A stretch of DNA of 64,000 bases from a virus (IMGVR_UViG_3300032320_001447:64001-128000); one strand, 5' to 3'; shown: positions 3,143 to 51,580, counted from the stretch's first letter. Translations and numbers: made by a program. The notes: generated by a model not told the origin, from the sequence alone.

Positions 3143-3286
3143 TTGTTATAAAATAATGTGTGTTCTGATTGCTTATTGTAATGTGAAGCAATATGTAGAT
3201 AAAATTCGTGTAGCTACCGCATTAGAAAGCGGTGCATGTACCAATAAATACGGCACTTTTTTCGAAAAATATGTATATACTAAAAA

Positions 3287-5313: not shown

Positions 5314-5324
5314 ATTGATAAATA

Positions 5325-5459
5325 TTATCTTCCTTGACCTTGATAGGTTTTTGGTCTTGGACTGTGCTTATTAAAACTCTTTTTACCTCCAGGTTGCCCT
5401 GATTTTCTTTTTCCGAAAACTAATTTTTCACTGCTTCCGGCTGACTTTATTTTTGCCAT
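5325..5459 (-). CDS. Small basic 44-aa protein ending YQGQGR
   Basis: Not in ORF track. MAKIKSAGSSEKLVFGKRKSGQPGGKKSFNKHSPRPKTYQGQGR fills the gap between two genes almost exactly. Confidence 0.7.
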   Translation of the reverse strand: MAKIKSAGSSEKLVFGKRKSGQPGGKKSFNKHSPRPKTYQGQGR

Positions 5460-5460
5460 G

Positions 5461-7253: not shown

Positions 7254-7276
7254 AGCTATTTTGGATAGGCTTGCTA

Positions 7277-7284
7277 ATAAATAT
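7277..7284 (-). promoter_or_regulatory. Putative late promoter ATATTTAT (representative; - strand copies also at 201, 3244 [GTATTTAT], 5318, 11537, 17219, 19904, 52109, 57111, 62031)
   Basis: Reads ATAAATAT on + strand, consistently just upstream of minus-strand starts. Confidence 0.7.
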
Positions 7285-7293
7285 CTAAATATT

Positions 7294-9216: not shown

Positions 9217-9225
9217 ATCTTTATA

Positions 9226-32842: not shown

Positions 32843-32853
32843 ATTAGAAAATA

Positions 32854-33960
32854 ATGGCAATATATAAAATATTTCCCACAGCAGACGCTTCAATATATTC
32901 TAGATTTCCGAATCAAAATACTGGTTTAGACGAGATTTTAGAAGTTTCTTGTAAAAATGACATAAATAGTACTACGTACTTGGTTGAATCGGATCCAAAT
33001 ACTCCGGCTCTATCAGATGATCTTAGAAGATCGCTAATACTATTTTCTGATGCTGACATTGCAAAAATAAAAAGCTTTTCTACAGGATCTTGGCAAGCTG
33101 GATTAAAATTATATTTAGCTAATGCAGAGAACTTAAATACAACATATAGTGTAGAAATTGGACAAGTATCTTCTTCGTGGACAATGGGTACTGGTAAGTT
33201 CTCCGATTATCCAGTAACTATTAACGGAGTGTGTTGGTATAATCCAAATCAATATGTAAGTGCTTCCAATGCCTGGCCAAACGCTAGTTATTTTTTAACT
33301 CCTGGTGGAGGCAATTGGGTTTCTGCAAGTATCGTTACTCAATCTTTTACTTATAAAGATCCAAAAGATATTAATGCAAATGTTACCTCTATAGTTAACA
33401 GATGGTTTAGTGGATCTTTAAACGCTGGATTTATAGTTAAACAAGCCACTTCAGTAGAAAATTCTTCTGGTAGCTTTATGGCTCTTAACTTCTTCTCTGT
33501 AGATACACATACAATATATCCTCCTACGTTAGAAATGAGATGGGACGACAGCTCATATTCTACAGGAAGTTTAAGCACAATAAACAATAATCAATTTGTA
33601 GTTTCAATAGATAACAACGTAGGTAATTTTAAATACAATACAGAAAAATATAGATTTAGAGTAAACGCTAGAGACAAGTATCCAGCAAGAACTTTTACAA
33701 CTTCTTCTGTTTATACAGTTAATAAAGCGCTTCCTAGAACTTCTTATTGGGCAATTCAAGACGTAAAAGGCGAAGATATAGTAATAGATTTCGATGACAA
33801 TTATACTAAAATAAGTTGTGATCCTACTAGCAGCTACTTTGATGTGTATATGAGTGGATTAGAGCCAGAAAGATACTATAAGTTACTTTTAAAAACAGTA
33901 ATAAGCACAGGAGAAACTATAGAAATAGACAATAACGCTATCTTTAAAGTAATTAGATAA
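32854..33960 (+). CDS. Putative baseplate/tail structural protein
   Basis: 368 aa beta-rich; DASIYS, NTGLDEILE, W.MGTG, FFS.DT.TIYPP.LE. Confidence 0.6.
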   Translation: MAIYKIFPTADASIYSRFPNQNTGLDEILEVSCKNDINSTTYLVESDPNTPALSDDLRRSLILFSDADIAKIKSFSTGSWQAGLKLYLANAENLNTTYSVEIGQVSSSWTMGTGKFSDYPVTINGVCWYNPNQYVSASNAWPNASYFLTPGGGNWVSASIVTQSFTYKDPKDINANVTSIVNRWFSGSLNAGFIVKQATSVENSSGSFMALNFFSVDTHTIYPPTLEMRWDDSSYSTGSLSTINNNQFVVSIDNNVGNFKYNTEKYRFRVNARDKYPARTFTTSSVYTVNKALPRTSYWAIQDVKGEDIVIDFDDNYTKISCDPTSSYFDVYMSGLEPERYYKLLLKTVISTGETIEIDNNAIFKVIR

Positions 33961-34298
33961 TGGAAAAAGTAGATTTAGTAAAAAAAGTATACGGTATTAA
34001 TACGTATTCGAAAGTAGTAGATACTAGCTTTTCTGAATTAATTACGCCTGCTCCTATAGTAAGTGCTAGCGTTGTAACTGTTGAACAGTTTTTTGAAGAA
34101 TACGATCAATTGTTTTTCGACATACCTGTTACTGGAGAAATTAATTCTCACACATATTTAGTTAATAGAAGCCAACAATATATAGGAGGCTCGGTTATAG
34201 ATGCTGAAAAGCAAGCATTGATAGAAGAGATTAACTCTTTGCGTCAACAGTTATTAGATTTGAATCAATCATTTTCGTCAATAAGTAATTTAGTTTAA
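33960..34298 (+). CDS. Small structural-block protein
   Basis: 112 aa, start overlaps previous stop, C-terminal coiled coil. Confidence 0.55.
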   Translation: MEKVDLVKKVYGINTYSKVVDTSFSELITPAPIVSASVVTVEQFFEEYDQLFFDIPVTGEINSHTYLVNRSQQYIGGSVIDAEKQALIEEINSLRQQLLDLNQSFSSISNLV

Positions 34299-37200
34299 TG
34301 GAATTAGTAAAAGTATCGGTAAAAGGAACGGGCATATCTGCTCAACAATATTCGCCTATAGATAATTCGCTAATTACTAGTAATTTTATAAATTCTAGTT
34401 TTGGAGCTAAAGAAGACTATATTGAAATTTTCATATACGATCAAAATGGAAATATTCTTTTGTCTGACTATGATGGATTCGATTATTATCCTTACTTAAC
34501 TTCTAATCCTCAAAATAATTTATATAACGTAATATCTTTAGATCCACAAAAAGATGTTATTAATAGAGGTTTTACAAGAGGATCTGTTAATATTCAATAT
34601 TCTTTTTTTAAGAAACTATTTAATTCTCAGTTCGGAAAGACCTACTGGATAAAAGAAATTTCAGAATCTAGAACAGAACTTAAGCTTGCTTCTCAAGTTA
34701 TTAGTGACATAGGAATCATAGAGGGATTTGACGTTTATCAAAATTACATTTCTACTAAGAATTACTATAGCGATTTTTACCTAAATTTTGGAGATAATAA
34801 TTTAGTAATAGGTGTTAATGTGGCTGTAGCGGAAGACGAAGAAGGTACTTTTTTATTAGTAAAGTTATACGAACCGCTTGATGCAGATATCGATGTAAAG
34901 GCACAACTTTGGATAGTTGATAAAATATCAGAAGCCATAAATTATAACGTAGATATTCAGGTTCCCGCTGTTGACGAAAACGAAGCAAATAGATTACGTG
35001 GACCTAACTTCGCTGTTAGAGTTTCAGAAAAAATAGGACAAACTACTCCTTATTATTCTTACAATAGTTTAATTGCTAGTAATTACACTTCTTCATTCCA
35101 AAAATTATTAAGTTACTATCAAGATAAATCTGTAGAGATTAATGTAGACTATAGTAACTTTGGTAATTTTATTCACTTCTCAAGCGCTGTAGAAAGATTA
35201 GAAAATTTTAAATACAAATTAGAATTAATTGAGTCTTACAATAACGATATAAGATTAGCTAATTCTTACTCTTCTCAATCTCCAACTGCGGCTTCTTCTT
35301 CCATAGGATTAGCTAGCAACTCGATAAATAATGTAATTAAAAATTTCGATACCTACGAATACTTTTTATATTTTGATTCAGGAAGTTGGTCTTGGCCTAA
35401 GCGTAATAATACACAGCCTTTCGCGTTGTATTCTGTAACGTCTTCTCAAGCATCTAATTGGTTGGGTTCTATAGACACTGTAACCACTCCAACGACCGCT
35501 TCTTTATTATACTCAGCTTCTTTATACGACTATTCAAATAAAGATTATTTAAGATACAGTATTCCACAATATCTATTGGACGATTCTAGCAATCAACCGT
35601 ATCTTACATTCTTGGATATGATAGGTCAACATTTTGATAATATTTGGATTTATTACAAAGATGTTACAAATAGATTTGACGCTACAAATAATCCTAATAC
35701 CGGTATTTCTTTAGATTTAGTTTCTGATGCTTTAAGAGGTTTGGGCTTTGAATTGTATACTAATACTAGTATTACTAATAACCTATACTACACTTTATTT
35801 GGCATTAATCAAGATGGAACTTTATTGCCTCCAACTGGATCTGAGCGCATTACAAATTATGTAACCTCTAGTATTGCTACTTTACCAGGTCTTCAAATAC
35901 AAGACGAATATTATAAAAGACTTTATCACAACTTACCTTATTTATTAAAAACAAGAGGTACTCAAAGAGGCATAAAAGCTTTGATCGCTTCGTACGGTAT
36001 ACCTGATACAATATTAGACGTTAAAGAATTTGGAGGAGTTTCAAGAGAAACTCTCGCTGGTATATACGATATAGACAGTGAAGATTATAAAATAACAATT
36101 GCTACAGGTAGCAATGGACAAGTGACAGGAAGTAGTTCTATATCTTCTTCTTTACTGTCTTATAGCACAACCTTACAGTATTATTCTACAGACAAAAGAT
36201 TAAACTCTGCTAACGTAGAAGTTGGATTTAGTCCAAGCAATACCGTAAATAATAATATAACGGCCTCAGGAGTTATCATTGGCAATATAGATCAGTACAT
36301 AGGAAATCCTAGCTACGCCAATCTTTCTACTTATCCCGCTTTAGATACTTTAAAAACTACATACTTTCAATCCTACGATAAGCCTAAAAGCGTTTGGGAG
36401 TACATTAGACTGATTAAGTTTTACAATAATAGTTTGTTTAAGACTATAAAAGATTTCGTGCCTGCGAGAGCCAATTTATCTACAGGTATTATTATAAAAT
36501 CTCACATACTAGAAAGAAACAAATACGCTAGAAACGAACCTAGCGCAAGTGTCAATCAGTATTCTGAATCAATAGAATTGCTTTCTATTACTGGATCCGC
36601 GGCTAATACCATATCAGGCTCTACTAATTGGCAGGCTCCTTTATTAACTTTGGTTGGATATGTTCCATATTCTTCTTCTCAAAATATTGAAAAATTTACT
36701 GGAGAATTCAGTGGCTCTATTATAACAGCGACTGACTATGAAAGTTTTCCTCAAATAGAATACAACAATAACGTATCTAGTAGTAATGCCTCTTTATCTA
36801 ATTTAACTAGCTCTTTATTGGCATTATATCAAAATGTTACCGCATCAGTTAGATCTCAAAAGTATTTTGATTTAGACTATACGTCTAATCAATCCACACC
36901 AGTTAATTTTGGAATAGTTACTCAATCCATATCTCAAAGTCAAGTATCCGGATTCGACAATCAAGGCGCTTACACCTCTTCAACCGTTCCTTACGCGGAG
37001 TTACAGGATAGCAACTATGCTTTGCAAAGTTTTACAATTCCTAGATATTACGGATCAAAAACAATTAGTGCTACGTATACGGACTACACTGTTGGAGACG
37101 CCTCTTACGGAGATACTGCCGCTATTGATAAAATTAAATTTCAATATGCATACCTAGTAGACATATACTCTTCCTCTTTACAATTACCAGAAAGATCTAA

Positions 37201-38415: not shown

Positions 38416-39078
38416 ATGTCTTATTTAAGTAGTACTTCAGTCGTAGTCGATGCCATTTTAACAAAAAAAGGCCGCGAATTATTGGCAAGAAACGATGGTT
38501 CTTTCCAAATCACTCAATTTTCTTTATCTGATGATGAGGTAGATTATACTCTGTATAATCCAAACCATCCTTCAGGATCAGCTTTTTATGGAGAGGCGAT
38601 AGAAAATATGCCAGTCCTTCAAGCCTTTCCAGATGACACGGAAATCATGAAGTATAAGCTTATAACTCTTCCAAGAGGCACAGCCAAACTTCCAGTGTTG
38701 GATTTGGGATACAACAGCATTTCCCTTCGTCAAGGCGCAAGTCTTTCTATTACGCCACAAACATTAAATTACTTAGGCGCCACTAGTACTTACGAACAGT
38801 CTGGATATGTTGCTACTATCGGTGATGTTAGAACGATGAACGGTAATTTTGTAGGAGTTGGAATTAACACCCCAGAAGTAACTTCATTAAATGCGACTAC
38901 AACTATAGGTACTAACGTAAGTAAGACAGTAATTGGCACAACTATCAATATGACTGCTACTACTATTAATACTCTATTCGGAAACAATGCACAATTACAG
39001 ACAACATTAATTGTTACAGGTAGAGATTCAGGAGCTAGAATTAGTATTCCGGTAACGATCATTAAAACAAACTCATAA
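38416..39078 (+). CDS. Putative baseplate/tail structural protein
   Basis: VDAILTKKGRELLA...ITQFSLSDDEVDY.LY (T4 gp8/fibre N-terminus-like LT..GR pattern). Confidence 0.6.
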   Translation: MSYLSSTSVVVDAILTKKGRELLARNDGSFQITQFSLSDDEVDYTLYNPNHPSGSAFYGEAIENMPVLQAFPDDTEIMKYKLITLPRGTAKLPVLDLGYNSISLRQGASLSITPQTLNYLGATSTYEQSGYVATIGDVRTMNGNFVGVGINTPEVTSLNATTTIGTNVSKTVIGTTINMTATTINTLFGNNAQLQTTLIVTGRDSGARISIPVTIIKTNS

Positions 39079-39089
39079 TAATTTAATAT

Positions 39090-40121
39090 ATGTCTTTTAC
39101 TCAATTTGATCAATCGGATTTCGTAATATCCAATGATTCTGTTACTGCTCCAGCATGGAGTACTAATGCACCGACATTGACTTCTTTTTTTACATTAAGT
39201 GGTAACGCGACTGGCAGCTATTACGTAGATGTATATCAAACTGCATCTACTTTAAGCAACGCAGCAATTCAATTTTCTATAGCCTACGGTCATATATACG
39301 GATCAGGTTCTATACCGTTAAATCCTTTGGTTCCTCAAAATACACCTACTAGAGTTACTTTCGGTCAATATAGAAATTTAATTTACGGAGACGCTGAATC
39401 AAATGTAAACTTTGGATCTGGGGCAACCGCTTCTTTAGATCTAATAGCTATTCCTATAGATAGAAATAGGTACAAAGGCAACTTATTTCCTGGTACTTTT
39501 AATTTACAATTAGGATTTGGTACTTATGCTCAAAAATTAAAGTTAACCGACAATTCTAATGACGTTTCTACAATTACTTACTTAGATTGCGGAAGAGCTT
39601 TCAATATTATATCTGGATCCAATGGTACAGCGGCTAATAGTCCATTAATATCAGGAGCTCCAGCTAAAGGCTACACACCTTCTGGTTCTTACGGATTATT
39701 TTTACCTGATGTGGGTTTAATTTTATTGAATCCCACTGCTTTAAGTTTGCCTACTGCTGGTGGAGGTTTAGCAGTCACTTGGTCAAATAGCACAACAACA
39801 AATGGTTTAAATAATGCAAGAGCGTTTGAACTTATCAACTCTGGAAGTTCTTTCGCTTTAAATAGTCAAGAGCAGATATCTTCAGATTATGTGTTTGTTA
39901 GAGTTAGAAATTCTGAATACAATTATACATCTAATCCATCTATAATCAATGTATCTGGAAGTTTAATATACCCTAATTTTATTAATAGTCCTCAGACTTA
40001 TATGACAACTGTTGGTTTGTATAACACAAATAATGATCTTTTAGCGGTTGCTAAATTATCAAAACCATTGGTTAAAGATTTCACTAAGGAAGCATTAGTT
40101 AGAGTAAAATTAGACTGGTAA
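39090..40121 (+). CDS. Putative baseplate/tail-fibre attachment protein
   Basis: C-terminal EYNYTSNPS...TYMTTVGLYN..NDLLAVAKLSKP...VKLDW. Confidence 0.6.
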   Translation: MSFTQFDQSDFVISNDSVTAPAWSTNAPTLTSFFTLSGNATGSYYVDVYQTASTLSNAAIQFSIAYGHIYGSGSIPLNPLVPQNTPTRVTFGQYRNLIYGDAESNVNFGSGATASLDLIAIPIDRNRYKGNLFPGTFNLQLGFGTYAQKLKLTDNSNDVSTITYLDCGRAFNIISGSNGTAANSPLISGAPAKGYTPSGSYGLFLPDVGLILLNPTALSLPTAGGGLAVTWSNSTTTNGLNNARAFELINSGSSFALNSQEQISSDYVFVRVRNSEYNYTSNPSIINVSGSLIYPNFINSPQTYMTTVGLYNTNNDLLAVAKLSKPLVKDFTKEALVRVKLDW

Positions 40122-40124
40122 AAA

Positions 40125-41360
40125 ATGAGTATCGCAAAGAATACCATAAGGTTTTCTGATATAACTACCACTCCTATAAAATTAAAGTATTCAGCTTCTT
40201 ATTCAAGCCAATCTTTTTCAAACTTAGGAGTTACTATAAATGGTGGTGTTAACGGTCCTACCGCTAGTTTAGACCCAATTACTGCTATGACTTATAATAA
40301 CAATTATAGGTTAGTTAAACAACTCTATTATACTAATTACATAACGGGATCTTTATTAGGAACTGGTAGCGCATGGGATTCTTCTTTGCAATCCACAGCA
40401 GCTTCTGGAAGTATGGATGCAGATATTAGATCTTTTCCCACTGGAAGTAATGAAAGAATTAGTTTTTTAGCAATTCCAAGAACGGTATTTGGAGAAAATA
40501 TAAGTAGAAACACGTTAGCTATATCAAGCACTAATGGTACTAGTTATAAATTAATAGACGACGGTAATGGAAATATTATAGACGCAAAAGCAAATTACGT
40601 TCATGTTGGAAATATAATATATTCTCAAGGCATAATTACTTTTACTAATCAAGATTATGTTTCTGCGTTCTTTAATAATAATTTTACTTTTACAGTTTCT
40701 ATAGTTCCTCCATCCCCTACGCCAAGCGTTACACCAAGCCTAACTCCTAGTGTAACTGTTACGCCTTCTATAACGCCTAGCGTAACTATAACTCCATCAG
40801 TTAGTGTAACTCCTAACGCTAGCACAACTCCTAGTGTAACTGCTACTCCTTCTGTTAGTGTTACGCCTCCTATAACGCCTAGCGTAACTATAACTCCATC
40901 AGTTAGTGTAACCCCTGTAGTTAGTGTAACACCTTCAGTTACAATAACTCCGTCCGTTACAATTACACAGTCACCGTCAGCTGGTTCGGTTTCTATTACT
41001 GTAAATGATCCAGGTTCTTTCCCTTACCCTGTATCAGCCGGTAATGGATCCGCTTCAGGTACAATTAGTAATACCTCTGGAGTTACGGTATACGTTTATA
41101 TAGTATTTAATAGCGGAGGTAACAATTCAGGAAATATAGGAAGTGATAGTGGTGTTGTAGACGGAACAAGCATTCCTATGAGTGGAACTGTAACAGCATT
41201 CGGACAAACTATATACTCAGCAACCTACGCTACTATAGCAAACGGATCTACTGGATTAGCTTGGAGCTTATCTAAGCAAGACACATTGTCAAGCGGAGCA
41301 ACATTAAGATTAGGCTATTCAACAACTATAGGAGGTGCTATAACTCTTCTATCTCCATAA
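40125..41360 (+). CDS. Structural protein: N-terminal domain paralogous to upstream gene + mucin-like TPS stalk + C-terminal beta domain
   Basis: LAIPR..FGE.I, LIDDGNGN, VGNIIYSQGII followed by (TPSVT(I/V))n repeats. Confidence 0.7.
   Translation: MSIAKNTIRFSDITTTPIKLKYSASYSSQSFSNLGVTINGGVNGPTASLDPITAMTYNNNYRLVKQLYYTNYITGSLLGTGSAWDSSLQSTAASGSMDADIRSFPTGSNERISFLAIPRTVFGENISRNTLAISSTNGTSYKLIDDGNGNIIDAKANYVHVGNIIYSQGIITFTNQDYVSAFFNNNFTFTVSIVPPSPTPSVTPSLTPSVTVTPSITPSVTITPSVSVTPNASTTPSVTATPSVSVTPPITPSVTITPSVSVTPVVSVTPSVTITPSVTITQSPSAGSVSITVNDPGSFPYPVSAGNGSASGTISNTSGVTVYVYIVFNSGGNNSGNIGSDSGVVDGTSIPMSGTVTAFGQTIYSATYATIANGSTGLAWSLSKQDTLSSGATLRLGYSTTIGGAITLLSP
40707..40980 (+). repeat. Mucin-like Thr-Pro-Ser coding repeats
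   Basis: TPSV/TPSVTI 12- and 18-nt units. Confidence 0.9.
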
Positions 41361-41393
41361 AAATAAAAAACTAGAAGATAATTATAAAAAGAG

Positions 41394-43280
41394 ATGCTGG
41401 TAACAATACAACTTACGAATTATGGGGATGCAGTAGGTCCATTTAATATCTACTACGACCTGGACTATGTTAGCCCTTTCACTATTGCTGCATCCAACGT
41501 ATCTCTCGCTAATTTAATTAATGGCTATGAAGTAGATATAGATACGTTATCTGTTAGAGTGGTATTAGAAAATTTGAACCCATTTGGAAACAATAATTAT
41601 GTAGAAGTATTCTTAGTTCCTCAAAGTCCTTCTCCTACTCCAAGCATGACTCCTTCTATTACAGTTACTCCTAGCATGAGCATCACTCCTAGTGTAACTG
41701 TAACTCCTAGCGTAACTATAACTCCATCAATTACACCTAGTGCTAGCATTACTCCTAGCGTTACTATAACTCCTAGCATTAGCATAACTCCAACAGTTAC
41801 GCCTAGTGTTTCTATAACTCCTAGTGTTACTATAACTCCTAGCATTAGCATTACTCCAACAGTTACTCCTAGTGTTACTATAACTCCTAGCATTAGCATT
41901 ACTCCAACAGTTACTCCTAGTGTTTCAATAACTCCTACTGTAACGCCATCAGTTTCAATAACTCCTAGTGTTTCAATAACTCCTACTGTAACGCCATCAG
42001 TTTCTATAACTCCTAGTGTTTCAATAACTCCTACTGTAACGCCTAGTGTTTCTATAACTCCTAGTTTGACTACAACGCCTACTGTAACACCATCAGTTTC
42101 TATAACTCCAACAGTTACGCCTAGTGTTTCTATAACTCCTAGTGCTACTATTACGCCAACAGTTACTCCATCGACTAGTGTTACTCCAAGCATAACGATA
42201 ACACCAACAGTTACTCCATCTACATCAATAATACCAATAACATTATCAGTAACTGCATTTTGTGATGAACCTGTTTATAATGGAAATGGCAGAATATACG
42301 CTAATGCATTTGGTGGCGGCACAAATAGTTTTGATTATATAACAATTAGTGCGATATCAGCGGCAGACGCGCTATCTAGATTAGATAATCCAGCAACAAG
42401 AACATTTATAGGTGGAGCCACAGAGTATAATTTTACTGGACTAATAAATGATACCTATTATGTAGCTATAATGGATACAGTGGGTAATAAAGGAGTATCA
42501 ACGGCCGTCGTGGTATCTTGTATAGCGCCTTCGCCTACACCGACTAGAACTCCTAGTTCAACGCCAGCACCAACACCTAGTTTAACACCGACTAGAACTC
42601 CTAGTTCAACGCCAGCACCAACACCTAGTTTAACACCGACACCAACGCCTACTCCTCCATTAACAAAATATCTAGTTGAATTATGCGGTGGAGGTGAAGG
42701 ACCATACGTTGTTTCGTTAGCAAGCGGTGATTTCCCTGCAGGAATAGGTTGGTCGTATAAGTTGTATAAAGAAAGTACACCATTTGATGGAATTAAATGT
42801 TGGGAGATCTTAGAAAATCCTTCAACAGGTACTTTGGATTACGATGCGGTTGCTTTTGGCCCTTCTTATAACAACTGTACGGCTTGTCTTCCGCCTCCAT
42901 CACCAACGCCTAGTTTAACACCAACTATAACACCAACACCGACGCCTAGTGCTGCGTTAGGATACGCATTCGTAGATATTGCTAATAACACGGCTGGTAC
43001 AGATATTACTAATATTACAATAAACGGAGTACAAGTAGACGGAGCAGTTTTCCCAATAGTTGCTGGTGATGGAGCATCTGCTACAACAACAGAGACTGGC
43101 GCATCAAGAACAATAGTTGTATCTTATACAAATATAAGTAACGACTCCGTTGAGGTGATTGATACTGCATCAAACCTTACTTGTATAAGCGCAACATCAA
43201 CAAGTAGAACATTTTCTGGACAAGTTGTAAGCGATGCAGGTACAGTAACAATTTCAATGTTTGATGGACCATGTCCATAA
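41394..43280 (+). CDS. Mucin-like modular virion (fibre/whisker-type) protein
   Basis: 628 aa; four small beta domains, some Cys-containing, separated by three Thr/Pro/Ser-rich linkers, the first ~200 aa. Confidence 0.7.
   Translation: MLVTIQLTNYGDAVGPFNIYYDLDYVSPFTIAASNVSLANLINGYEVDIDTLSVRVVLENLNPFGNNNYVEVFLVPQSPSPTPSMTPSITVTPSMSITPSVTVTPSVTITPSITPSASITPSVTITPSISITPTVTPSVSITPSVTITPSISITPTVTPSVTITPSISITPTVTPSVSITPTVTPSVSITPSVSITPTVTPSVSITPSVSITPTVTPSVSITPSLTTTPTVTPSVSITPTVTPSVSITPSATITPTVTPSTSVTPSITITPTVTPSTSIIPITLSVTAFCDEPVYNGNGRIYANAFGGGTNSFDYITISAISAADALSRLDNPATRTFIGGATEYNFTGLINDTYYVAIMDTVGNKGVSTAVVVSCIAPSPTPTRTPSSTPAPTPSLTPTRTPSSTPAPTPSLTPTPTPTPPLTKYLVELCGGGEGPYVVSLASGDFPAGIGWSYKLYKESTPFDGIKCWEILENPSTGTLDYDAVAFGPSYNNCTACLPPPSPTPSLTPTITPTPTPSAALGYAFVDIANNTAGTDITNITINGVQVDGAVFPIVAGDGASATTTETGASRTIVVSYTNISNDSVEVIDTASNLTCISATSTSRTFSGQVVSDAGTVTISMFDGPCP
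41619..42232 (+). repeat. Long mucin-like TPSVSI/TPTV coding repeat array
   Basis: Recurrent actcctagtgtt / actccaacagtt units. Confidence 0.92.
42537..42632 (+). repeat. Exact 48-nt tandem duplication (TPTRTPSSTPAPTPSL x2)
   Basis: acaccgactagaactcctagttcaacgccagcaccaacacctagttta repeated twice. Confidence 0.92.
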
Positions 43281-43410
43281 AAAACAAAATTTGGAATATA
43301 AATAAAAATTAATATATAAATAGGTATAATATACTATACGTACTTACATACTTTGTTTTCTACTTTAAAAATAAATTTTACATTGTAAATTAAAAGTTTT
43401 AGATTACATT

Positions 43411-44667
43411 ATGCCAAAAATATTTGTTTCGATAGCATCTTACAGAGACCCTGAATTACTTCCTACACTTGAAAATTTATTAGATAATGCAAAGTATCCT
43501 CAAGACCTTGTTATTTGTATAGGGTGGCAGCATTCAAAAGAAGACAAATGGGACAATTTAAAGAAATATAAAAGGGATCAGCGATTTAAGATCATAGATA
43601 TAGACTACAAAGAGTCCAAGGGAGTTTGTTGGGCAAGAAGCGAAATACAAAAACTTTACACAGACGAGGACTACTACCTTCAATTAGATTCTCATCACAG
43701 ATTTACAAAAGATTGGGACGTACAATTAAAAGATCTTTTGCACTATCTTATGTGCAAGGGTCATGAGAAACCTTTACTATCTGCTTACATCCCAGGATAT
43801 TTTCCAGAAAAAGATCCTAAAGACAGAGTTAACGAAGTTTGGGGTTTAAACATAGACAGATTCATGCCGGCTGGCGCCATATTCTTAAGACCTCATCACA
43901 TAGAAAAGTTTGAGGAATTAAAAGAGCCTTTCTCAACCAGATTTATATCGGCTCACTTTATTTTTACCATTGGAAAATTTGTAAAAGAAGTGCCTTACGA
44001 TCCAAACTTATACTTTCATGGAGAAGAGAGTTCTTTAGCCGCTAGAGCTTACACTTACGGATACGATTTATTTGCTCCACACAAAGTGATAGTTTGGCAC
44101 GAATACACAAGAGAGGGAAAGAAAAGACATTGGGACGATAGTCAAGATTGGAAAGCCAAAGACGATGCTTCTTACTCAAGATTTAGAAAACTATTTGGTA
44201 TGGATCCGGGTTGTACGCCATGTCAAAGAAAAGCGCTAGCTCCTTACGGATTCGGTCCAACGAGATCTTTAACTGATTTTGAAAAGTACGCAGGTTTAAA
44301 ATTTGCAACAAGACAAATACACAGAGAGACTCTAAAAAATAATTTTCCTCCAATAAAATCAGATTACGAATCGGGTCTTGCATCTAGTCAAAAGTACTGT
44401 ATAGACATTTATAAAGGATCTTTAACAGAAAAAGATTACGATTCTTTTGTTGTTGCATTTTTGGATGAGAACGGAGAAGATATATACAGACAAGATTGTA
44501 ATAAGGAAGAAATTCAAAGCATGATGAATCTTGATGTAAACAATAAATTCATTCATATATGGAGAAATTTTGAAGCTGTAGAAAGACCAGTTTGTTGGAG
44601 AGTTTGGCCTCATTCAGAATCTATGGGTTGGATGGAAAGAATAGAACAAAAAATATCATATGAATAA
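43411..44667 (+). CDS. GT60-like polypeptide N-acetylhexosaminyltransferase (Skp1 GlcNAc-transferase family), paralog 1
   Basis: IFVSIASYRDPEL, GVCWAR, YYLQLDSHHRF..WD (DxH), FHGEE, YTYGYDLF.P, G.G..RSL.DFE. Confidence 0.85.
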   Translation: MPKIFVSIASYRDPELLPTLENLLDNAKYPQDLVICIGWQHSKEDKWDNLKKYKRDQRFKIIDIDYKESKGVCWARSEIQKLYTDEDYYLQLDSHHRFTKDWDVQLKDLLHYLMCKGHEKPLLSAYIPGYFPEKDPKDRVNEVWGLNIDRFMPAGAIFLRPHHIEKFEELKEPFSTRFISAHFIFTIGKFVKEVPYDPNLYFHGEESSLAARAYTYGYDLFAPHKVIVWHEYTREGKKRHWDDSQDWKAKDDASYSRFRKLFGMDPGCTPCQRKALAPYGFGPTRSLTDFEKYAGLKFATRQIHRETLKNNFPPIKSDYESGLASSQKYCIDIYKGSLTEKDYDSFVVAFLDENGEDIYRQDCNKEEIQSMMNLDVNNKFIHIWRNFEAVERPVCWRVWPHSESMGWMERIEQKISYE

Positions 44668-45934
44668 TAAGTTACAGACCATACTCGTACATTTACCTGC
44701 TTATAGGGACCCAGAATTGGTGCCAACTATTAAGAACGCACTAGAGAATGCGAAATATCCAAAACGAATTCACTTCGGCATTTGTAGACAATACAACCCA
44801 GAAGATCTTTTCGATAATGTAGACGAGTTTAGAAATGACAAACGTTTTCATATCATGGACGTTTTGTACACAGAAGCTCAAGGTCTACCATGGGCAAGAG
44901 CTCAAATCAACGAGAAGCTTTTAACCAATCAAGATTACATTTTACAACTGGATTCTCATCACAGATTCGCAGAGAATTGGGACGAGACTTTAATTGAAAT
45001 GCATAGCGATTTAGAAGCTCAAGGATACAAACCAATCTTAGGGGCTTATTTGCCATTGTATACTCCGTTTAACGATCCAGAAGGACGTACCATGGAGCCA
45101 TGGCAGCAGACCTTTGCTTGCTTCTATCCTCACGGAACTATCTTCATCAGACCAGGATTGCTACACGGTTGGCAAGACATGATAGAACCACCAATGAGTA
45201 GATTCTTATCTGGCCACTTCTGTTTTGCTAGATCTGAATGGGCAAAGGAGATAAAACACGATCCAGATATCTATTTTAGTGGAGAAGAATTAAACTTAAC
45301 TGTTAGATCTTACACTCATGGATACGATTTATTCCATCCGCACAAATTAGTTGTTTGGCATTCTACTATGAGAGAAGAGAGATCTGGCATGTTGAAGTGG
45401 GACGATGATTCTAAATTAGGAGTTAATTGGTTCCAAAAGCAAGAGTATGCAAGAAAAAAGATTAGAGTCTTATTAGGAACAGAAGAGGATCCAACTATAG
45501 ATTTAACTGGATACGATTTGGGTACAGTGAGAACTTTAAGAGATTTTGAAAAGTACGCAGGATTTCACTTCAAAAGGAAGTCTGTTCAAAAATATACACT
45601 AGACAACAAGTATCCGCCTAATCCATTGATAGAAGACGATGAATTATGGGAACAGTCTTTCATGGGATCTTTCTACCATCTAGTTACTATATATCCTCAT
45701 GACTTTCCAAGAAAGGATTATAAACATATCTTAGTAGCATTCGACGATGAAACAGGTAAAGCAGTGAATCACAAGTACATTGCTGGCGAGGAACTAGAAA
45801 ACTTTATGCACAAAGGACAACAAATACACTACGAAGAGTTTTTCTTAACAAATAAAAATCCTTCTAGAGTAGTATATTGGGGATTCACAGAAGAAGAAGG
45901 TTGGGTTGAAAGAGTAGAACATAAAATAAATTAA
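44660..45934 (+). CDS. GT60-like polypeptide N-acetylhexosaminyltransferase, paralog 2
   Basis: AYRDPEL, GLPWAR, ILQLDSHHRF..WD, FSGEE, YTHGYDLF.P, LGTVRTLRDFE. Confidence 0.85.
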   Translation: MNNKLQTILVHLPAYRDPELVPTIKNALENAKYPKRIHFGICRQYNPEDLFDNVDEFRNDKRFHIMDVLYTEAQGLPWARAQINEKLLTNQDYILQLDSHHRFAENWDETLIEMHSDLEAQGYKPILGAYLPLYTPFNDPEGRTMEPWQQTFACFYPHGTIFIRPGLLHGWQDMIEPPMSRFLSGHFCFARSEWAKEIKHDPDIYFSGEELNLTVRSYTHGYDLFHPHKLVVWHSTMREERSGMLKWDDDSKLGVNWFQKQEYARKKIRVLLGTEEDPTIDLTGYDLGTVRTLRDFEKYAGFHFKRKSVQKYTLDNKYPPNPLIEDDELWEQSFMGSFYHLVTIYPHDFPRKDYKHILVAFDDETGKAVNHKYIAGEELENFMHKGQQIHYEEFFLTNKNPSRVVYWGFTEEEGWVERVEHKIN

Positions 45935-45938
45935 AAAT

Positions 45939-46637
45939 ATGAATAAATTTGTAGAATTGCTCAAAGCATGCGACAGTTTTAAAGTAGACACTTTATACTG
46001 GGATCACGACATTTTAGCGCCTTTTGAAAATGATTTAAGAAATTATCCTGCTCCGTGGATAAAAAAGACCGTAGAATTATTAAAAATAATAGACGGAAAA
46101 GTAGTAGTAGAAATAGGATCTACAAGAAGAGAGATGACTCAATCTTGTTTAAACTACTATGACAACTGTTATACCATGACTCCTGCGCAAGCACCCGGTT
46201 GTTGTCAAGATGGACACTCTACTCATTTTTGGGCAGATGCTGGATTCGAAACTTATACAGTAGATATAGATGAAAATTGTAGAGTTCAATTAGAAAATCA
46301 GTATAAGTATCATATTCAAAAACCTATACCGGATAATTTACACATATGTATACCTCAAGATGGAATAGAATTTTTAACTAATTTTGATAAGAAAATAGAC
46401 TTATTATTTTTAGACGGTTGGGATAAAGGTTCTCACAATTACGCAGAAAAACATTTAGAAGCATTTTTAGCTGCTAAAGATAAATTGTCTGATTTACATT
46501 TGGTATCTATAGATGATACAGATTTTAATACTGAAAGTGCTGGTAAAGATAAATTATTAACGCCTTATTTATTAGAGAATGGATATATCAAAATACTTTG
46601 GGGAAGACAAATTGTTTTCATAAAGAATCAAATATGA
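45939..46637 (+). CDS. Class I SAM-dependent methyltransferase (probable glycan O-methyltransferase)
   Basis: VVVEIGS.R, YTVDID, DGIEFL, IDLLFLDG, IDD. Confidence 0.75.
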   Translation: MNKFVELLKACDSFKVDTLYWDHDILAPFENDLRNYPAPWIKKTVELLKIIDGKVVVEIGSTRREMTQSCLNYYDNCYTMTPAQAPGCCQDGHSTHFWADAGFETYTVDIDENCRVQLENQYKYHIQKPIPDNLHICIPQDGIEFLTNFDKKIDLLFLDGWDKGSHNYAEKHLEAFLAAKDKLSDLHLVSIDDTDFNTESAGKDKLLTPYLLENGYIKILWGRQIVFIKNQI

Positions 46638-47566
46638 AATTAAATTTCTATTACGAAAATCCTATTCCTGGTTCAATGGCTGGAAATGTATGTCATTTGG
46701 TTGCAGCAGAAAGATTCTTGAATTTATGTAAGAACGCCTATCCTGATATAGAGTTTAATTACATAAATTCTTGGGGAATTACTTATGAAAATGGTTTACC
46801 AACCCTTAGAAGTTGTCCAGGTTGTAAATTTAGTCACTTCTTCGTAATAATAGAAAACCCAGATAATAAAAAGTTTTTTGTTATTTCTTATTGGGACAAA
46901 TTAAAAGACATCACTTTAGACGGCACTTTTTGGGATTTAGAAAATTGTATGGGAATATTTCCATCTGCGGGAACTCACACTGACGATTTTTCTTTTAGAT
47001 CTATAGATTTAGATTATACTCCTATCGCTCCTTTAACTATACATAAATCTTTAGAAGATAAAGCGCAAGAATTATATCTCTTAAATGTTCCTAAGACTAC
47101 ACCTAAAAGTTTATTTTTTAGAGGGGGCGATTATGGTTTTAGAAGCTACTTATCTCGTAATGATAATAGATTTATAATTAATCATGAAAGAATAGATACT
47201 GCTATATTTGCAGAGGAAATGGCTAAAAATACTATTAACATAGATATTAACGCAGTAGCTGAAATTTCTGGAAGAACTATAGATGCTATGGCTTTAGGAA
47301 CTGCTTTAATCAGGCCTAAATTGTCCATCAAATATCATAACCCTCTTATACCAGATTATCATTATGCAGAAGTTAAATGTGATGATCTTTCTAATTGGCC
47401 TAAATTAGCAGACGCTTATGTAGAAAGATTTGAAGAACTTAAAAAAGACGAAGAGCAAGTTAAATTCTTTTCAGAAAATGGAAGAAGATGGTACGAAGAA
47501 AACGCAACAATAGAAGCTCATGTGAGTATTCTTAAAAAATTAATAGACTTAAATAAACTTGCCTAA
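46634..47566 (+). CDS. GT-B fold glycosyltransferase-like protein
   Basis: LFFRG, RTIDAMALG..LI, LIPDYHY, ENGRRWY; start taken at ATGA overlap (MKLNFYY). Confidence 0.65.
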   Translation: MKLNFYYENPIPGSMAGNVCHLVAAERFLNLCKNAYPDIEFNYINSWGITYENGLPTLRSCPGCKFSHFFVIIENPDNKKFFVISYWDKLKDITLDGTFWDLENCMGIFPSAGTHTDDFSFRSIDLDYTPIAPLTIHKSLEDKAQELYLLNVPKTTPKSLFFRGGDYGFRSYLSRNDNRFIINHERIDTAIFAEEMAKNTINIDINAVAEISGRTIDAMALGTALIRPKLSIKYHNPLIPDYHYAEVKCDDLSNWPKLADAYVERFEELKKDEEQVKFFSENGRRWYEENATIEAHVSILKKLIDLNKLA

Positions 47567-47569
47567 TAA

Positions 47570-48367
47570 ATGAAAGCAGTAGTAACATTGACGACTATAC
47601 CATCTAGATTGGTTAGCATATATCACGAAGATATAAAAGTGTGTTTAGATTCTTTACTTAATCAAGATTTTGAAGATTATGAAATTCATTTCAACATACC
47701 TTATTTTTTTAAATTAACCGAAGAAGAATATATTATTCCAGAATGGTTGAACGAATTAGTTGGAAACAATCCTAAGTTAAAAATATTTAGAGGAGAAGAT
47801 TATGGGTCTATTACAAAATTAGTAGATACTATAAAAAGAATAGAAGATTCTAATTGCATTATTATCACAGCAGATGATGATTTAGTATATCATCCAGAAA
47901 TGGTAAGTGAACAATATAAAAATCAAACAGAAAGATTTAGTAATTGCGCGGTGGGTTATGATGGTATTAGTGCATTAGAACCAGTGTTTAGAGACATACG
48001 CAGTCATTATGTAGTAAGCGTTCCTTGTAATGTTAAAGTAAATGTATTGCAACACTATAAAACAGTATCTTACAAAAGAAGTTATTTTGAAGAGGATTTC
48101 TTTACTGATTTTGTAGGACAATCTTGGGCCGACGATATTTTAGTATCAGCTTATATGGGAAAACAAAAGATTACAAAATACGTAACTTACTTTGAAAAAG
48201 AAAGCATACCTGCTACTATAGAAGAGTGGAATAGCAGAGGAGGCGTAACAACGTTTCCTATAATAAAACACACTCAACACGATTCACAAGAAGGTTGCAA
48301 TATTAAAAGAAATAATCAAGAAACAGACAATTTTATGTACTTTGTGCATAAAGGATACTTAAGATAA
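47570..48367 (+). CDS. GT-A fold glycosyltransferase
   Basis: VTLTTIPSRL, DYGSITKL, IITADDD.VY (DxD), ADDILVS. Confidence 0.8.
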   Translation: MKAVVTLTTIPSRLVSIYHEDIKVCLDSLLNQDFEDYEIHFNIPYFFKLTEEEYIIPEWLNELVGNNPKLKIFRGEDYGSITKLVDTIKRIEDSNCIIITADDDLVYHPEMVSEQYKNQTERFSNCAVGYDGISALEPVFRDIRSHYVVSVPCNVKVNVLQHYKTVSYKRSYFEEDFFTDFVGQSWADDILVSAYMGKQKITKYVTYFEKESIPATIEEWNSRGGVTTFPIIKHTQHDSQEGCNIKRNNQETDNFMYFVHKGYLR

Positions 48368-48371
48368 TATT

Positions 48372-50765
48372 ATGAGTTATAAAGAAGTTTTTAGCGGCAT
48401 TTATGATAATTTTGGTTTCGGAAGTTTGGAAAGCCGATCAGGTCCAGGCAGTACTTTAGAAGAAACTAAATTTCTTAGAGAGAAATTAAAAGAAATAGTA
48501 AAACAGAAAGACATAAAATCTGTAGTAGATATACCTTGCGGTGACTTTAATTGGATGAAAGAGATTGTATTTAGTTTTGAATCTTATACTGGTGGAGATA
48601 TTGTGGAGCAGTGCATCAAAACTAATAGTGAAGAATACGGAAGCAAGAGAATAAAGTTTATTGACTTCGATCTGTTAAACGATAGTATTCCCGATTCTGA
48701 TCTTTTAATAGTTAGAGATATTGTTGGTCACTTTCCTTTAGAAGATGGAAAAAAGATAATTGATAACATACTCAGATCTAATTGTAAATATCTTTTAAGC
48801 ACCACATGGGCAAAAAACACAGAACAAGGTTGGAGTAATTGTGGTCCCATGGATGTACATAGAGAAAACGAAGGAGTTGATTATGGAAGATTCTATCCAG
48901 TTAATTTAATGGCGCACCCATTCAATTTTCCATTAGCCGAAGTATTTTTAGAAGAAGACGTACGCGTAGATAATTTTGATAATGGAAATAGAAAGGCTTT
49001 AGCTCTATGGGATTTAGATAAAGTTAGAGAACATTTAAAAACAGTTGAACCAATACAATCTTTTAATACAGAATCAACAAAAAATTTAACAGTAGTTACA
49101 GGACTTTGGAATATTAATAGAAATGGCAGACCATTCGATCACTATATAGATAATTTTAAAAAGCTGTTAGATACCCCTCAGAATTTATTTATCTTTATTG
49201 AAAAAGAATATGAGCATTTAGTTTGGGATAAAAGATCTCCAAAAAATACTTTTGTTAAAATCTATGAGTTAGAAGACGTTAAAAACTTATACTCTCCTTT
49301 TTGGCAGAAAACTCAAGACCTTAGAAACAGTCCAGATTGGCATAATATCACTGGTGAAAATGGATGGTTAAAAGACAGTCCGCAGGCTAGCTTAGAGTGG
49401 TATAATCCAATAGTAATGTCAAAAATGTTTATGCTACACGATGTAACCATTTGGAATCCTTTTGATACAGAGTATTTTATATGGTTAGACGCAGGAATTA
49501 CTAATACTGTATATGAAAAATATTTTACAGAAAATAATGTGCTAAATAAAATAACTAGTTACTTAGATCCGTTCCTATTTTTATCTTATCCTTACGAAGC
49601 TGTCGATGAAATTCATGGATTTAAGTATGGAGAAATGAATAGGTATGCAGGTACTAAAGTAGAATATGTATGTAGAGGAGGGTTATTCGGAGGAAGCAAA
49701 GCCGCTATACATGAAGCAAATAGTGAATATTACAGTTTACTAAACAATACCTTATCTGACGGGTTGATGGGAACAGAAGAAAGCATTTTTACTATAATGT
49801 CTTATCTTTATCCTAACAGATATAGAAGATTCGAATTAGACAGTAACGGTTTAGTAATTAAATTTATACAAGCTTTAGATAGCGAAAATTTGCAGTTATC
49901 CGAAATTAAAAAGGATTTGGATTTTATACCTAATAAAAATGTTAACGTAGATAATTTAAAGACATCTATTTACATGTTGACTTTTAATTTTCCTCATCAA
50001 GTAGAACACACAATTCAAACTTGGTTAAAGCACTCAAGATTCATTAGCAATACAAGAAATATTTTAATAGATAATTCGACAAATGAAGAGGCTAGAATTG
50101 CCAATAAAGAAATTTGTGATAAGTACGGATTCGAACATATCATAACAAATGAAAACGCCGGTATCAATGGAGGCAGATTCAGAGCGGCCCAGCACTTCCA
50201 AGAATCAGATAGCGATTACTACTTATTTTTAGAAGACGATATGGGAATCCATCCTCCAGAAGAATTAGGTTTTTGTAGAAATGGATTTAGATATTTTGTT
50301 CCTAATTTGTACGATAACATTCTTAAGATAATGCACGGAAGCGATTTAGACTTTCTAAAATTATCTTACACAGAAGTTTACATGGATAACAATATTCAAG
50401 TCTCTTGGTATAATGTTCCTCAAACAGTTAGATCTGAATTTTGGCCCGATTATGATAAACTTCCTGTAACAGGACTTGACACTAATTGTCCTAGAACCGC
50501 TTTCAACAAAATAGAAGTCGTAGACGGTCTTAGCTATATTACTGGAGAAATCTATTACGCTAACTGGCCTATGATTGTGGGTAGAAAAGGCAATCAAAAG
50601 ATGTTCTTAGACACTACTTGGGCTAGACCTTACGAACAGACTTGGATGAGTTATATGTTCCAAGAAACTAAAAAAGGTAATTTAAAACCAGCGGTGTTAT
50701 TAGCTAGCCCAATTAACCACGATAGAATAGCTCACTATAAACCCGAAGAAAGACGAGAGAACTAA
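48372..50765 (+). CDS. Three-domain protein: methyltransferase-like + HtrL/YibB-like glycosyltransferase + GT-A glycosyltransferase
   Basis: SGPGST...VVDIPCGDFNWM...GGDIV; TVVTGLW...MSK.FML...NPFDTEYFIWLDAG...GGLFGG...GTEE; LIDNS...YYLFLEDD. Confidence 0.78.
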   Translation: MSYKEVFSGIYDNFGFGSLESRSGPGSTLEETKFLREKLKEIVKQKDIKSVVDIPCGDFNWMKEIVFSFESYTGGDIVEQCIKTNSEEYGSKRIKFIDFDLLNDSIPDSDLLIVRDIVGHFPLEDGKKIIDNILRSNCKYLLSTTWAKNTEQGWSNCGPMDVHRENEGVDYGRFYPVNLMAHPFNFPLAEVFLEEDVRVDNFDNGNRKALALWDLDKVREHLKTVEPIQSFNTESTKNLTVVTGLWNINRNGRPFDHYIDNFKKLLDTPQNLFIFIEKEYEHLVWDKRSPKNTFVKIYELEDVKNLYSPFWQKTQDLRNSPDWHNITGENGWLKDSPQASLEWYNPIVMSKMFMLHDVTIWNPFDTEYFIWLDAGITNTVYEKYFTENNVLNKITSYLDPFLFLSYPYEAVDEIHGFKYGEMNRYAGTKVEYVCRGGLFGGSKAAIHEANSEYYSLLNNTLSDGLMGTEESIFTIMSYLYPNRYRRFELDSNGLVIKFIQALDSENLQLSEIKKDLDFIPNKNVNVDNLKTSIYMLTFNFPHQVEHTIQTWLKHSRFISNTRNILIDNSTNEEARIANKEICDKYGFEHIITNENAGINGGRFRAAQHFQESDSDYYLFLEDDMGIHPPEELGFCRNGFRYFVPNLYDNILKIMHGSDLDFLKLSYTEVYMDNNIQVSWYNVPQTVRSEFWPDYDKLPVTGLDTNCPRTAFNKIEVVDGLSYITGEIYYANWPMIVGRKGNQKMFLDTTWARPYEQTWMSYMFQETKKGNLKPAVLLASPINHDRIAHYKPEERREN

Positions 50766-50778: not shown

Positions 50779-51084
50779 ATGCCAGCAGTACCAGTAGTAC
50801 CATATTCTCTATCCTTTTTGGCCGAATCAACGATTTACCAAAACGAGGTTAGATGTAAAGTTAACGAAAACGATTTTAATTATACACTTAATAGATCTGC
50901 TATTATAGAAGGAACTAGCGGATCTTATATAAATGCTGTAACTGGATCAGAATTTAGGCCTTACGCAACTACCGTGGGTTTATACAACGATGCAGATGAA
51001 TTATTAGTGGTTGGTAAATTATCCACTCCATATCCTATTCCTTCAAATACAGATATGACCTTTATTATTCGTTGGGATAGCTAA
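50779..51084 (+). CDS. Stand-alone C-terminal module of baseplate/tail protein family
   Basis: DFNYTLN.S...PYATTVGLYND.DELLVVGKLS.P...IRWD matches the C-terminus of 39090-40121. Confidence 0.75.
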   Translation: MPAVPVVPYSLSFLAESTIYQNEVRCKVNENDFNYTLNRSAIIEGTSGSYINAVTGSEFRPYATTVGLYNDADELLVVGKLSTPYPIPSNTDMTFIIRWDS

Positions 51085-51106: not shown

Positions 51107-51580
51107 ATGTCAAATTGGTTATACGAAGGGAAACAGCTCACTCAACTAAAAGATTTCCCAGATGATGTTGTAGGATTTGTCTACAAAGTCACAAACAATA
51201 AAACTGGCAAATTCTACGTCGGTAAAAAAATCCTTAGAAACGTTCTAACAAAAACGCTAACAAAGAGAGAAATTTCAGAGTGGATTAAACCAGGGCGTAT
51301 TCCAAAGAAAAGAAAGGAAATTAAAGAAAGCAATTGGGCAGACTATTACGGTTCAAGCAAATTGGTAACAGAAGACATTAAAACCTTCGGTAAAGAAGCA
51401 TTCACTAGAGAGATATTAAGAGTTTGCACGACCAAGAAACAGATGAGCTATTGGGAGACTTATTATCAAATGACACTAAAAGTTTTAGAGGTGAATAGCT
51501 ATAACGAGAATATAGCAGGTAAATGGTACCGCAGGGATGTCAATCCAATCACACCCGAGCTCGAGGCCGAAGAGGAATAA
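51107..51580 (+). CDS. GIY-YIG (Seg-like) endonuclease
   Basis: GFVYKVTN..TGKFYVGKK, YYGSS, F.REIL, YNENI. Confidence 0.8.
   Translation: MSNWLYEGKQLTQLKDFPDDVVGFVYKVTNNKTGKFYVGKKILRNVLTKTLTKREISEWIKPGRIPKKRKEIKESNWADYYGSSKLVTEDIKTFGKEAFTREILRVCTTKKQMSYWETYYQMTLKVLEVNSYNENIAGKWYRRDVNPITPELEAEEE

Follow-up and report, generated by a model that had tools for sequence, protein, structure and literature searches.

A probable protein O-glycosylation module of a T4-like phage: GT60-family transferases beside Thr-Pro-Ser-repeat fibre genes

Mucin-type O-glycosylation is regarded as a process of the eukaryotic secretory pathway, and enzymes of the GT60 family start mucin-type O-GlcNAc in protists. 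Virion glycosylation by phage enzymes has, to our knowledge, been documented so far only for the capsid and tail-tube proteins of mycobacteriophages. Here we analyse a gene block of a phage in which two fibre-type genes with long Thr-Pro-Ser (TPS) repeats are directly followed by two GT60-like transferase genes and four further putative sugar-modifying genes. The block lies at 40,125–50,765 of a 64,000-nucleotide stretch (“the window”), which represents bases 64001–128000 of the record IMGVR_UViG_3300032320_001447 (174,359 bp, 100% complete by CheckV); positions are those of the window unless the complete record, G000, is named. We consider it probable that this region is a phage-encoded protein O-glycosylation module operating in the host cytoplasm on the phage’s own fibre proteins.

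Two of the closest described systems serve as background. In the Skp1 pathway, a soluble cytosolic GT60 enzyme is followed by a bifunctional two-domain transferase, and the absence of a ricin-like lectin domain is a named trait of the GT60 family (PMC8724618). In the mycobacteriophages, phage-encoded glycosyltransferases reportedly decorate the phage’s own virion proteins at the C-termini of the capsid and tail-tube subunits (Freeman et al. 2023, via PMC12619734). In our literature search, no publication dealing with phage GT60 or mucin-type systems was found. The block comprises the following features, given in nucleotides (nt) and amino acids (aa):

40125–41360, plus strand: TPS411, fibre-type protein with an N-terminal anchor (aa 1–182), a TPS stalk (aa 184–292, nt 40674–41000) and a C-terminal domain.
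41394–43280, plus strand: TPS628, modular protein with three TPS/PT segments (nt 41601–42263, 42489–42692 and 42852–42980).
43281–43410, plus strand: AT-rich gap of 130 nt, the only sizeable one of the block, with two TATAAATA motifs at 43297 and 43315.
43411–44667, plus strand: GT60a, PF11397/GT60 glycosyltransferase of the GT-A type with a C-terminal beta domain (aa about 323–414), from Pfam, PHROG and an AlphaFold2 (AF2) model.
44660–45934, plus strand: GT60b, paralog of GT60a (8-nt overlap) with intact catalytic motifs, from its PF11397 match.
45939–46637, plus strand: MT232, 232 aa, probable class I S-adenosylmethionine-dependent methyltransferase of the variable part (PF13578, E 6e-4; PHROG 24975, E 4e-14).
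46598–47566, plus strand: p322, 322 aa, putative glycosyltransferase (Glyco_trans_1_2/GT90-like), from language-model feature neighbours.
47570–48367, plus strand: GTA265, 265 aa, probable GT-A glycosyltransferase of the variable part with a DDD motif (PF00535, E 2e-4).
48372–50765, plus strand: fus797, with a methyltransferase (aa 16–189), an HtrL_YibB-like domain (aa 239–482) and a C-terminal GT-A domain (aa 521–797), from Pfam, PHROG and AF2.

The open reading frame coordinates of the original prediction, which was made from the nucleotide sequence alone, were borne out except for the start of p322, which probably is the ATG at 46634 rather than the TTG at 46598. The six genes of the cassette, GT60a to fus797, are indeed tightly packed on the strand of the TPS genes, being overlapping or at most 4 nt apart.

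The profile matches place both paralogs in PF11397/GT60: GT60a scores 236.4 bits (E 8e-70) and GT60b 177.2 bits (E 8e-52) against a cut-off of 21, profile positions 2–45 and 92–351 of 352 being covered, and both match PHROG 24687 as well (E 3e-149 for GT60a). The two proteins are 39% identical (BLASTP E 5e-103). The SYRD/AYRD, QLDSHHRF (with LDSHH as the DxH motif) and GEE motifs that had drawn attention to the pair, together with H230, are invariant across 20 a- and b-type sequences; therefore, both paralogs look catalytically competent. In the AF2 model of GT60a, built on an alignment of 20 sequences with a mean pLDDT (predicted local distance difference test) of 88.6, the GT-A core has a predicted fold closest to the GT27 polypeptide GalNAc-transferases (ppGalNAc-Ts), in agreement with the GT27 relationship proposed earlier. 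The best 29 PDB entries in the Foldseek and VIA-align comparison are all GT27 ppGalNAc-Ts (Z 18.4–22.3 over about 275 residues, root-mean-square deviation about 3.5 Å), and the next match is SpsA with Z 16.8. Sequence and profile searches of GT60a against the PDB sequences gave no match, and a solved Gnt1-type GT60 structure was absent among the 50 structural matches listed.

The Pfam model does not cover the C-terminal beta domain (about 95 aa), which the bacterial homologues retain. Pfam revealed no ricin-type lectin domain in GT60a or GT60b, the C-terminal domain being a different small beta domain. No hydrophobic segment, transmembrane or signal-like, was found in any of the eight proteins (two TPS and six cassette proteins), which upholds the earlier statement that the enzymes lack signal peptides; GT60a and GT60b are predicted to be soluble. 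Since they have neither lectin domain nor signal anchor, we consider them GT27-like but outside GT27.

Like the protist GT60 enzymes (the Dictyostelium and Trypanosoma cruzi initiators and Skp1 Gnt1), the phage pair combines PF11397, a GT-A fold and DxH with the lack of a ricin lectin domain, and Thr/Pro-rich acceptors are common to both, being here presumed from gene linkage. The parallel to the cytosolic Skp1 Gnt1 pathway may be called close, because a GT60 enzyme predicted as soluble is again accompanied by a two-domain transferase. Unlike the protist enzymes, those considered here are encoded by a phage and by many bacteria, bear the extra beta domain and occur in a genome in which no prolyl hydroxylase was found; the absence of a PF13640-type oxygenase from this genome makes us disfavour a hydroxyproline-linked, Skp1-like route. 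The animal GT27 ppGalNAc-Ts provide the closest solved structures and share the DxH and GE(E/N) motifs; their multiple isoforms act on Ser/Thr/Pro-rich tandem repeats, and here two paralogs stand beside TPS repeats. They differ from the phage enzymes, to which they are only 13–17% identical, in the ricin B lectin domain and the signal anchor, both lacking in GT60a/b.

The presumed substrates are two adjacent genes of the tail block and, as had been claimed, carry long Thr-Pro-Ser stalks. TPS411 has a single repeat segment of 109 residues, while the repeats of TPS628 form three segments (aa 70–290, 366–433 and 487–529; 221, 68 and 43 residues, 332 in total) between small globular domains. The units TPS[VI][ST][IV] and TP[ST]V recur in both proteins, and the underlying DNA is a degenerate tandem repeat. 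The N-terminal 182 aa of TPS411 are shared, at 25–58% identity, with same-slot proteins of relatives, which are 176–1524 aa long, many of them having no TPS; since the anchor is conserved and the distal parts are exchangeable, TPS411 has the usual build of a fibre. TPS628 matches PHROG 15511 and PHROG 38031, both families of unassigned function. The complete record encodes one more protein of this type, outside the window:

G000 32782–34731, minus strand, about 29 kb before the window’s start: third TPS-repeat protein, 649 aa, beginning with MPIEFQNRTG.

Its TPS residues number about 400. The distal domains are almost the same as those of TPS628, which, judging from the sequences, suggests that two fibre genes have recently exchanged distal modules. 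A 190-aa minus-strand open reading frame at 41621–42193 with GVTVGV-type repeats was rejected as an antisense mirror of the TPS repeat, almost certainly not a gene.

The phage is a T4-like relative akin to Flavobacterium phages, and its hosts probably belong to the freshwater Bacteroidota/Flavobacteria; since its genome has 174 kb, the initial reference to jumbo phages had to be dropped in favour of T4-like. Among cultured phages, the Flavobacterium phages vB_FspM_immuto are the nearest relatives (p220 homologue 73% identical); their gene order runs from a baseplate wedge gene through several genes without a name to the homologues of p220 and p343, one further unnamed gene and the annotated tail fibre and tail spike. 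Because of this gene order and of a baseplate wedge PHROG match at 30995–32842, upstream of p220, we assign the cassette region to the tail-fibre slot. The region gave no match at the nucleotide level when compared with 50,697 phage records. The slot is bordered by three conserved structural genes:

38416–39078, plus strand: p220, 71–93% identical in about 100 related loci, upstream edge of the slot together with p343.
39090–40121, plus strand: p343, 44–84% identical in about 100 related loci, upstream edge of the slot together with p220.
50779–51084, plus strand: p101, a small gene, downstream edge of the slot.

The p343–p101 interval is the variable tail-fibre slot of a Flavobacterium-phage-like T4 relative: in most relatives, p343 and p101 are neighbours or have fibre genes alone between them. 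The possibility that p343 and p101 are two halves of one gene cut by the island was rejected, because both are present and adjacent in most island-free relatives and because p101 is paralogous to the p343 C-terminus (34–46% identical to the p343 homologues across relatives). As both genes are intact in the island-free relatives, the island was inserted between two genes and split none.

The linkage of GT60 to TPS genes carries the main weight of our argument. A single search revealed more than 6,500 relatives of GT60a, and TPS genes stand directly upstream of it in every viral locus with 65–100% GT60a identity that extends upstream. We fetched 80 further loci via the conserved neighbour p220, and 76 loci were usable for counting; commonly, p220, p343 and p101 follow one another either without an intervening gene or with a fibre gene lacking TPS. 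Among these 76 fibre-slot loci, TPS and GT60 are both present in 13 and both absent in 56, TPS occurs without GT60 in 7, and GT60 without TPS in none. Two of the seven come from complete genomes with GT60 elsewhere (G001 and G002), the other five being fragments, and the relocated GT60 pair of G001 is again placed directly after a TPS gene, one running across the record ends.

On the p220+p343 tree, the TPS/GT60 states change at least 6–10 times. In 10 independent pairs differing in TPS, GT60 differs in the same way in 6, in the opposite way in none and not at all in 4, which are fragments (sign test p 0.031). In the complete or nearly complete genomes with GT60 (G000, G001, G002, G014 and G011), TPS residues number in the hundreds or more, as against 31 (G003) and 51 (G004) in the complete genomes lacking it. 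The records G005–G009 are fragments and were left out as evidence of absence.

The same association was revealed in cellular genomes. We analysed 80 loci with full-length GT60 homologues from Verrucomicrobiota, Bacteroidota, Gemmatimonadota, Acidobacteriota, Planctomycetota, Actinomycetota and Proteobacteria. Thr-Pro-repeat genes occur 28 times within 3 kb of the homologue versus twice at 4–10 kb (binomial p 4e-10), that is, 0.066 versus 0.003 per kb, an about 22-fold difference in density. In many of these loci, the repeat gene ends 3–50 bp upstream of the GT60 homologue on the same strand, in the same order as in the phage. For example, in Sphingomonas, 1,200-aa proteins with Pro-Thr (PT) linkers and an Rv2525c-like glycoside-hydrolase-like domain end 3–12 bp before it. 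A further repeat-gene neighbour occurs on the chromosome of Ralstonia sp. 25C (L272:12276-15137), where 0.9 kb separates a full-length GT60 homologue from a VgrG spike with Phage_GPD, Gp5_C and base_V domains and a Pro-Thr tail of 150 residues; VgrG is another cytoplasmically assembled tail-like part, belonging to the type VI secretion system (T6SS). GT60 and Thr-Pro-repeat genes are, therefore, linked in phages and independently in bacteria.

Since the TPS stalks directly precede the GT60 pair, and since the enzyme accompanies the repeat in phages as well as in bacteria, we suggest that the phage fibres are probably sugar-coated by the phage’s own enzymes. The enzymes would be made late in infection together with the structural proteins in the cytoplasm, where the first sugar may be attached by one or both GT60 enzymes to Thr/Ser residues of TPS411, TPS628 and the third TPS protein while their stalks are unfolded. 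By family analogy, this sugar would be alpha-GlcNAc from the host UDP-GlcNAc pool (PMC8724618). GT60a and GT60b probably prefer different acceptors, like the GalNAc-T isoforms. The chain could then be extended by the two-domain transferase and the smaller transferases, and the sugars modified by the methyltransferases, which in relatives may be replaced by a carbamoyltransferase, amino-sugar and other enzymes. In this way, the spacer that separates the virion anchor from the distal binding domains would be stiffened, lengthened and shielded by dense glycan sleeves differing from strain to strain.

The pathway had been expected to travel as a whole, from initiation to methyl capping. At the gene level, this applies to its core, one or two copies of GT60 plus the two-domain HtrL-like/GT-A protein, which is conserved across relatives; the methyltransferases and the other transferases vary between cassettes. 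Residues 238–797 of fus797 represent the conserved partner of GT60 in nearly all cassettes, the N-terminal methyltransferase being variable. This methyltransferase domain matches PHROG 3382 (E 3e-34), and residues 239–482 match PF09612 (E 1.3e-11, 45 bits, cut-off 24.1). Since the score for the NCBIfam equivalog TIGR02192 is only 42 at a cut-off of 265, the domain is a distant HtrL_YibB member and not YibB itself. In the AF2 model of fus797 (pLDDT 85), the C-terminal domain has a GT-A fold (Z 14–17), and an EDD motif is invariant. The full-length protein has no PDB sequence match; its full-length Foldseek matches are the two-domain transferases Mimivirus R699, K4CP, LH3 and LARGE1.

The label of a methyltransferase/HtrL-like/GT-A fusion was thus confirmed, while those of the three preceding genes came out weaker. 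MT232 reaches 21.1 bits with PF13578 (cut-off 26.3), and no homologue was detected in the related loci compared. GTA265 reaches 21.9 bits with PF00535 (cut-off 23.3) and has homologues 79–80% identical in L022–L024 and about 30% identical in L014/L015. For p322, no Pfam, PHROG or NCBIfam match was found, and its “GT-B-like” label stands on language-model features only: its Atlas feature neighbours (scores 0.96–0.97) include some with PF13524/PF05686, and homologues of 24–49% identity occur in some relatives. NCBIfam returned nothing useful for the six cassette enzymes. In relatives, the variable middle part may contain a carbamoyltransferase (8 loci), an FkbM methyltransferase, a GT34-like protein, a DegT aminotransferase or GT2/GT7C-like proteins.

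The AT-rich gap just before GT60a contains the two TATAAATA copies 18 nt apart, which match the T4 late-promoter consensus. Since this motif is not enriched in the window (8 seen versus 10.5 expected), a T4-type late promoter at this place is only a hint.

Viruses that glycosylate their own structural proteins offer two further comparisons. As with the mycobacteriophages, glycosyltransferases of the phage would decorate its own virion proteins, and the transferase genes here adjoin virion structural genes, the cassette being placed between the fibre genes and p101; unlike the capsid and tail-tube C-termini targeted there, the presumed targets are fibre repeat stalks. As in the fibre/collagen glycosylation of Mimivirus, repetitive structural proteins and transferases are encoded by the same virus, and over its full length the two-domain transferase finds its best Foldseek match (E 4e-11) in the collagen galactosylhydroxylysyl glucosyltransferase R699 of Mimivirus. 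However, this likeness is limited to the two-domain GT-A architecture (TM-score 0.27–0.33), and the virus realm, linkage and host differ. We dropped the similarity to R699 as a functional clue, because re-alignment left a generic two-domain GT-A architecture.

Several points weigh against a fibre-directed O-glycosylation module, which is partly supported, by association alone, although of a strong kind: for every family member, the substrate and sugar assignments rest on guilt by association. For three of the six enzymes, the assignment falls short of the curated thresholds, and the HtrL family is otherwise known from lipopolysaccharide (LPS) gene clusters. The predicted co-occurrence of TPS and GT60 genes held in the fibre slots, and did not extend to all distant cassettes: no long TPS gene was found within 10 kb of L029, L030, L138–L144 and L146–L156. 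Two partial genomes with GT60, G012 (55% complete) and G013 (25% complete), have little or no TPS. That TPS and GT60 are gained and lost together in the fibre slot could partly be due to the co-transfer of one DNA block rather than to a functional tie. Moreover, polar and hydrophobic residues alternate in the TPS repeats (TPSVSITPSVTI), which therefore might fold as beta structure and not as an extended mucin-like chain.

Among the alternatives, the best surviving one, which we nevertheless regard as unlikely, is that the cassette enzymes act on different proteins of phage or host (for example capsid, sheath or a host factor), in which case the TPS stretches would be plain unglycosylated spacers that gather in a hypervariable slot. 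Pro/Thr linkers are common and often unmodified, the distant cassettes are located away from any TPS gene, and the phage virion glycosylation described so far concerns capsid and tail-tube C-termini (Freeman et al. 2023, via PMC12619734). However, such spacers would leave unexplained why no fibre-slot locus out of 76 has GT60 without TPS and why the two change together on the tree, why the moved GT60 pair of G001 again follows a TPS gene, and why Thr-Pro-repeat genes are so much denser beside the homologue in bacteria of many phyla.

A somewhat smaller chance may be given to the synthesis or alteration of a non-protein glycan (host LPS, capsule or exopolysaccharide), blocking superinfection or aiding release. 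It would suit the HtrL_YibB domain, whose family is named from an LPS cluster, the O-antigen-like variable middle part with its carbamoyl-, methyl- and aminotransferases, and the four further GT2 genes located elsewhere in the genome. But neither a membrane segment nor a flippase, polymerase or lipid-carrier priming transferase is present in the cassette, its initiating enzymes have the family and fold of polypeptide transferases, and it is located inside the late structural block in linkage with Thr-Pro-repeat genes.

That the GT60 enzymes glycosylate phage DNA, like the T4 glucosyltransferases or the arabinosyl-hydroxycytosine systems, is very improbable in spite of the frequency of DNA glycosylation in T4-like phages, the DNA-modifying GT-A enzymes of some phages (bioRxiv 10.1101/2023.12.21.572611) and the position of the Xoo-sp13/XacN1 GT60 homologue a few genes from DNA polymerase and RNase H, since the bacterial homologues adjoin Thr-Pro-repeat proteins rather than DNA-metabolism genes and the enzymes making the hydroxylated bases for known DNA-sugar pathways (bioRxiv 10.1101/2023.12.21.572611; PMC13326640) are absent: PF00303 (ThyA/dCMP-hydroxymethylase), PF12851 (Tet/JBP dioxygenase) and PF00145 (C5 methyltransferase) were not found in the complete 174-kb record, PF00303 and PF00145 being detected above and PF12851 only below the cut-off in control genomes.

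Some observations concern more distant GT60 loci and the surroundings of the cassette. The Xanthomonas jumbo phages Xoo-sp13 and XacN1 (L001, L032) have a single GT60 homologue, about 40% identical, followed by a carbamoyltransferase, and this pairing recurs in 8 loci of the Flavobacterium-phage-like clade. On the opposite strand, at a distance of about 8 kb from the homologue, both phages encode a protein exceeding 3,000 aa with Pro-Thr linkers at its end. When the Xanthomonas phage GT60 homologue was used as the query, a search of viral contigs gave no relatives. Among cultured phages, Stenotrophomonas phages CM1 and RAS14 have a GT60 homologue as well. The GT60-bearing 118-kb record G011, from which L150 was taken, encodes ten Pro-rich or Thr-Pro-repeat proteins (2430–10493 and 95–118 kb), some of them being 2,200–2,700 aa long with extensin-like SPPP repeats.

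Downstream of p101, a 157-aa gene (51107–51580) matches PHROG 447, labelled NAD synthetase, as well as homing-endonuclease PHROGs; nearly all relatives keep it directly behind p101, an unusual constancy for a mobile endonuclease. Outside the window, four more GT2-family genes score above the Pfam cut-off (G000 144316–144672, 145464–145817, 150064–150486 and 156850–157284), and they mark a second glycosylation-related cluster at 142–157 kb of G000.

Taken as phage virion glycosylation, the system is of a known kind in a form for which we found no published description, and it is widespread: its initiator family, predicted to be soluble and located here beside presumed repeat substrates, is encoded by thousands of uncultured aquatic phages and by bacteria of many phyla. 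With chances that we regard as even, the data may reflect a widespread prokaryotic and viral cytoplasmic mucin-type O-glycosylation, in which soluble GT60 enzymes coat the Thr-Pro(-Ser) stalks of tail fibres and of T6SS VgrG spikes and effectors, while variable cassettes diversify the glycan. Such a system would be a counterpart, possibly an ancestor, of the eukaryotic GT60/GT27 system, and would add a glycan layer to phage–host recognition and defence evasion.

If the fibres are indeed glycosylated, the receptor-binding appendages of abundant freshwater phages bear a variable glycan coat, which could determine how stiff and far-reaching the fibres are, how well they resist proteases and adhere, and how host defences recognise them. 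The VgrG link would extend the idea to secretion-system weapons, and a simple bacterial route to defined mucin-like glycoproteins would become available. For the family itself, the finding would provide a testable hypothesis for the origin of GT60/GT27.

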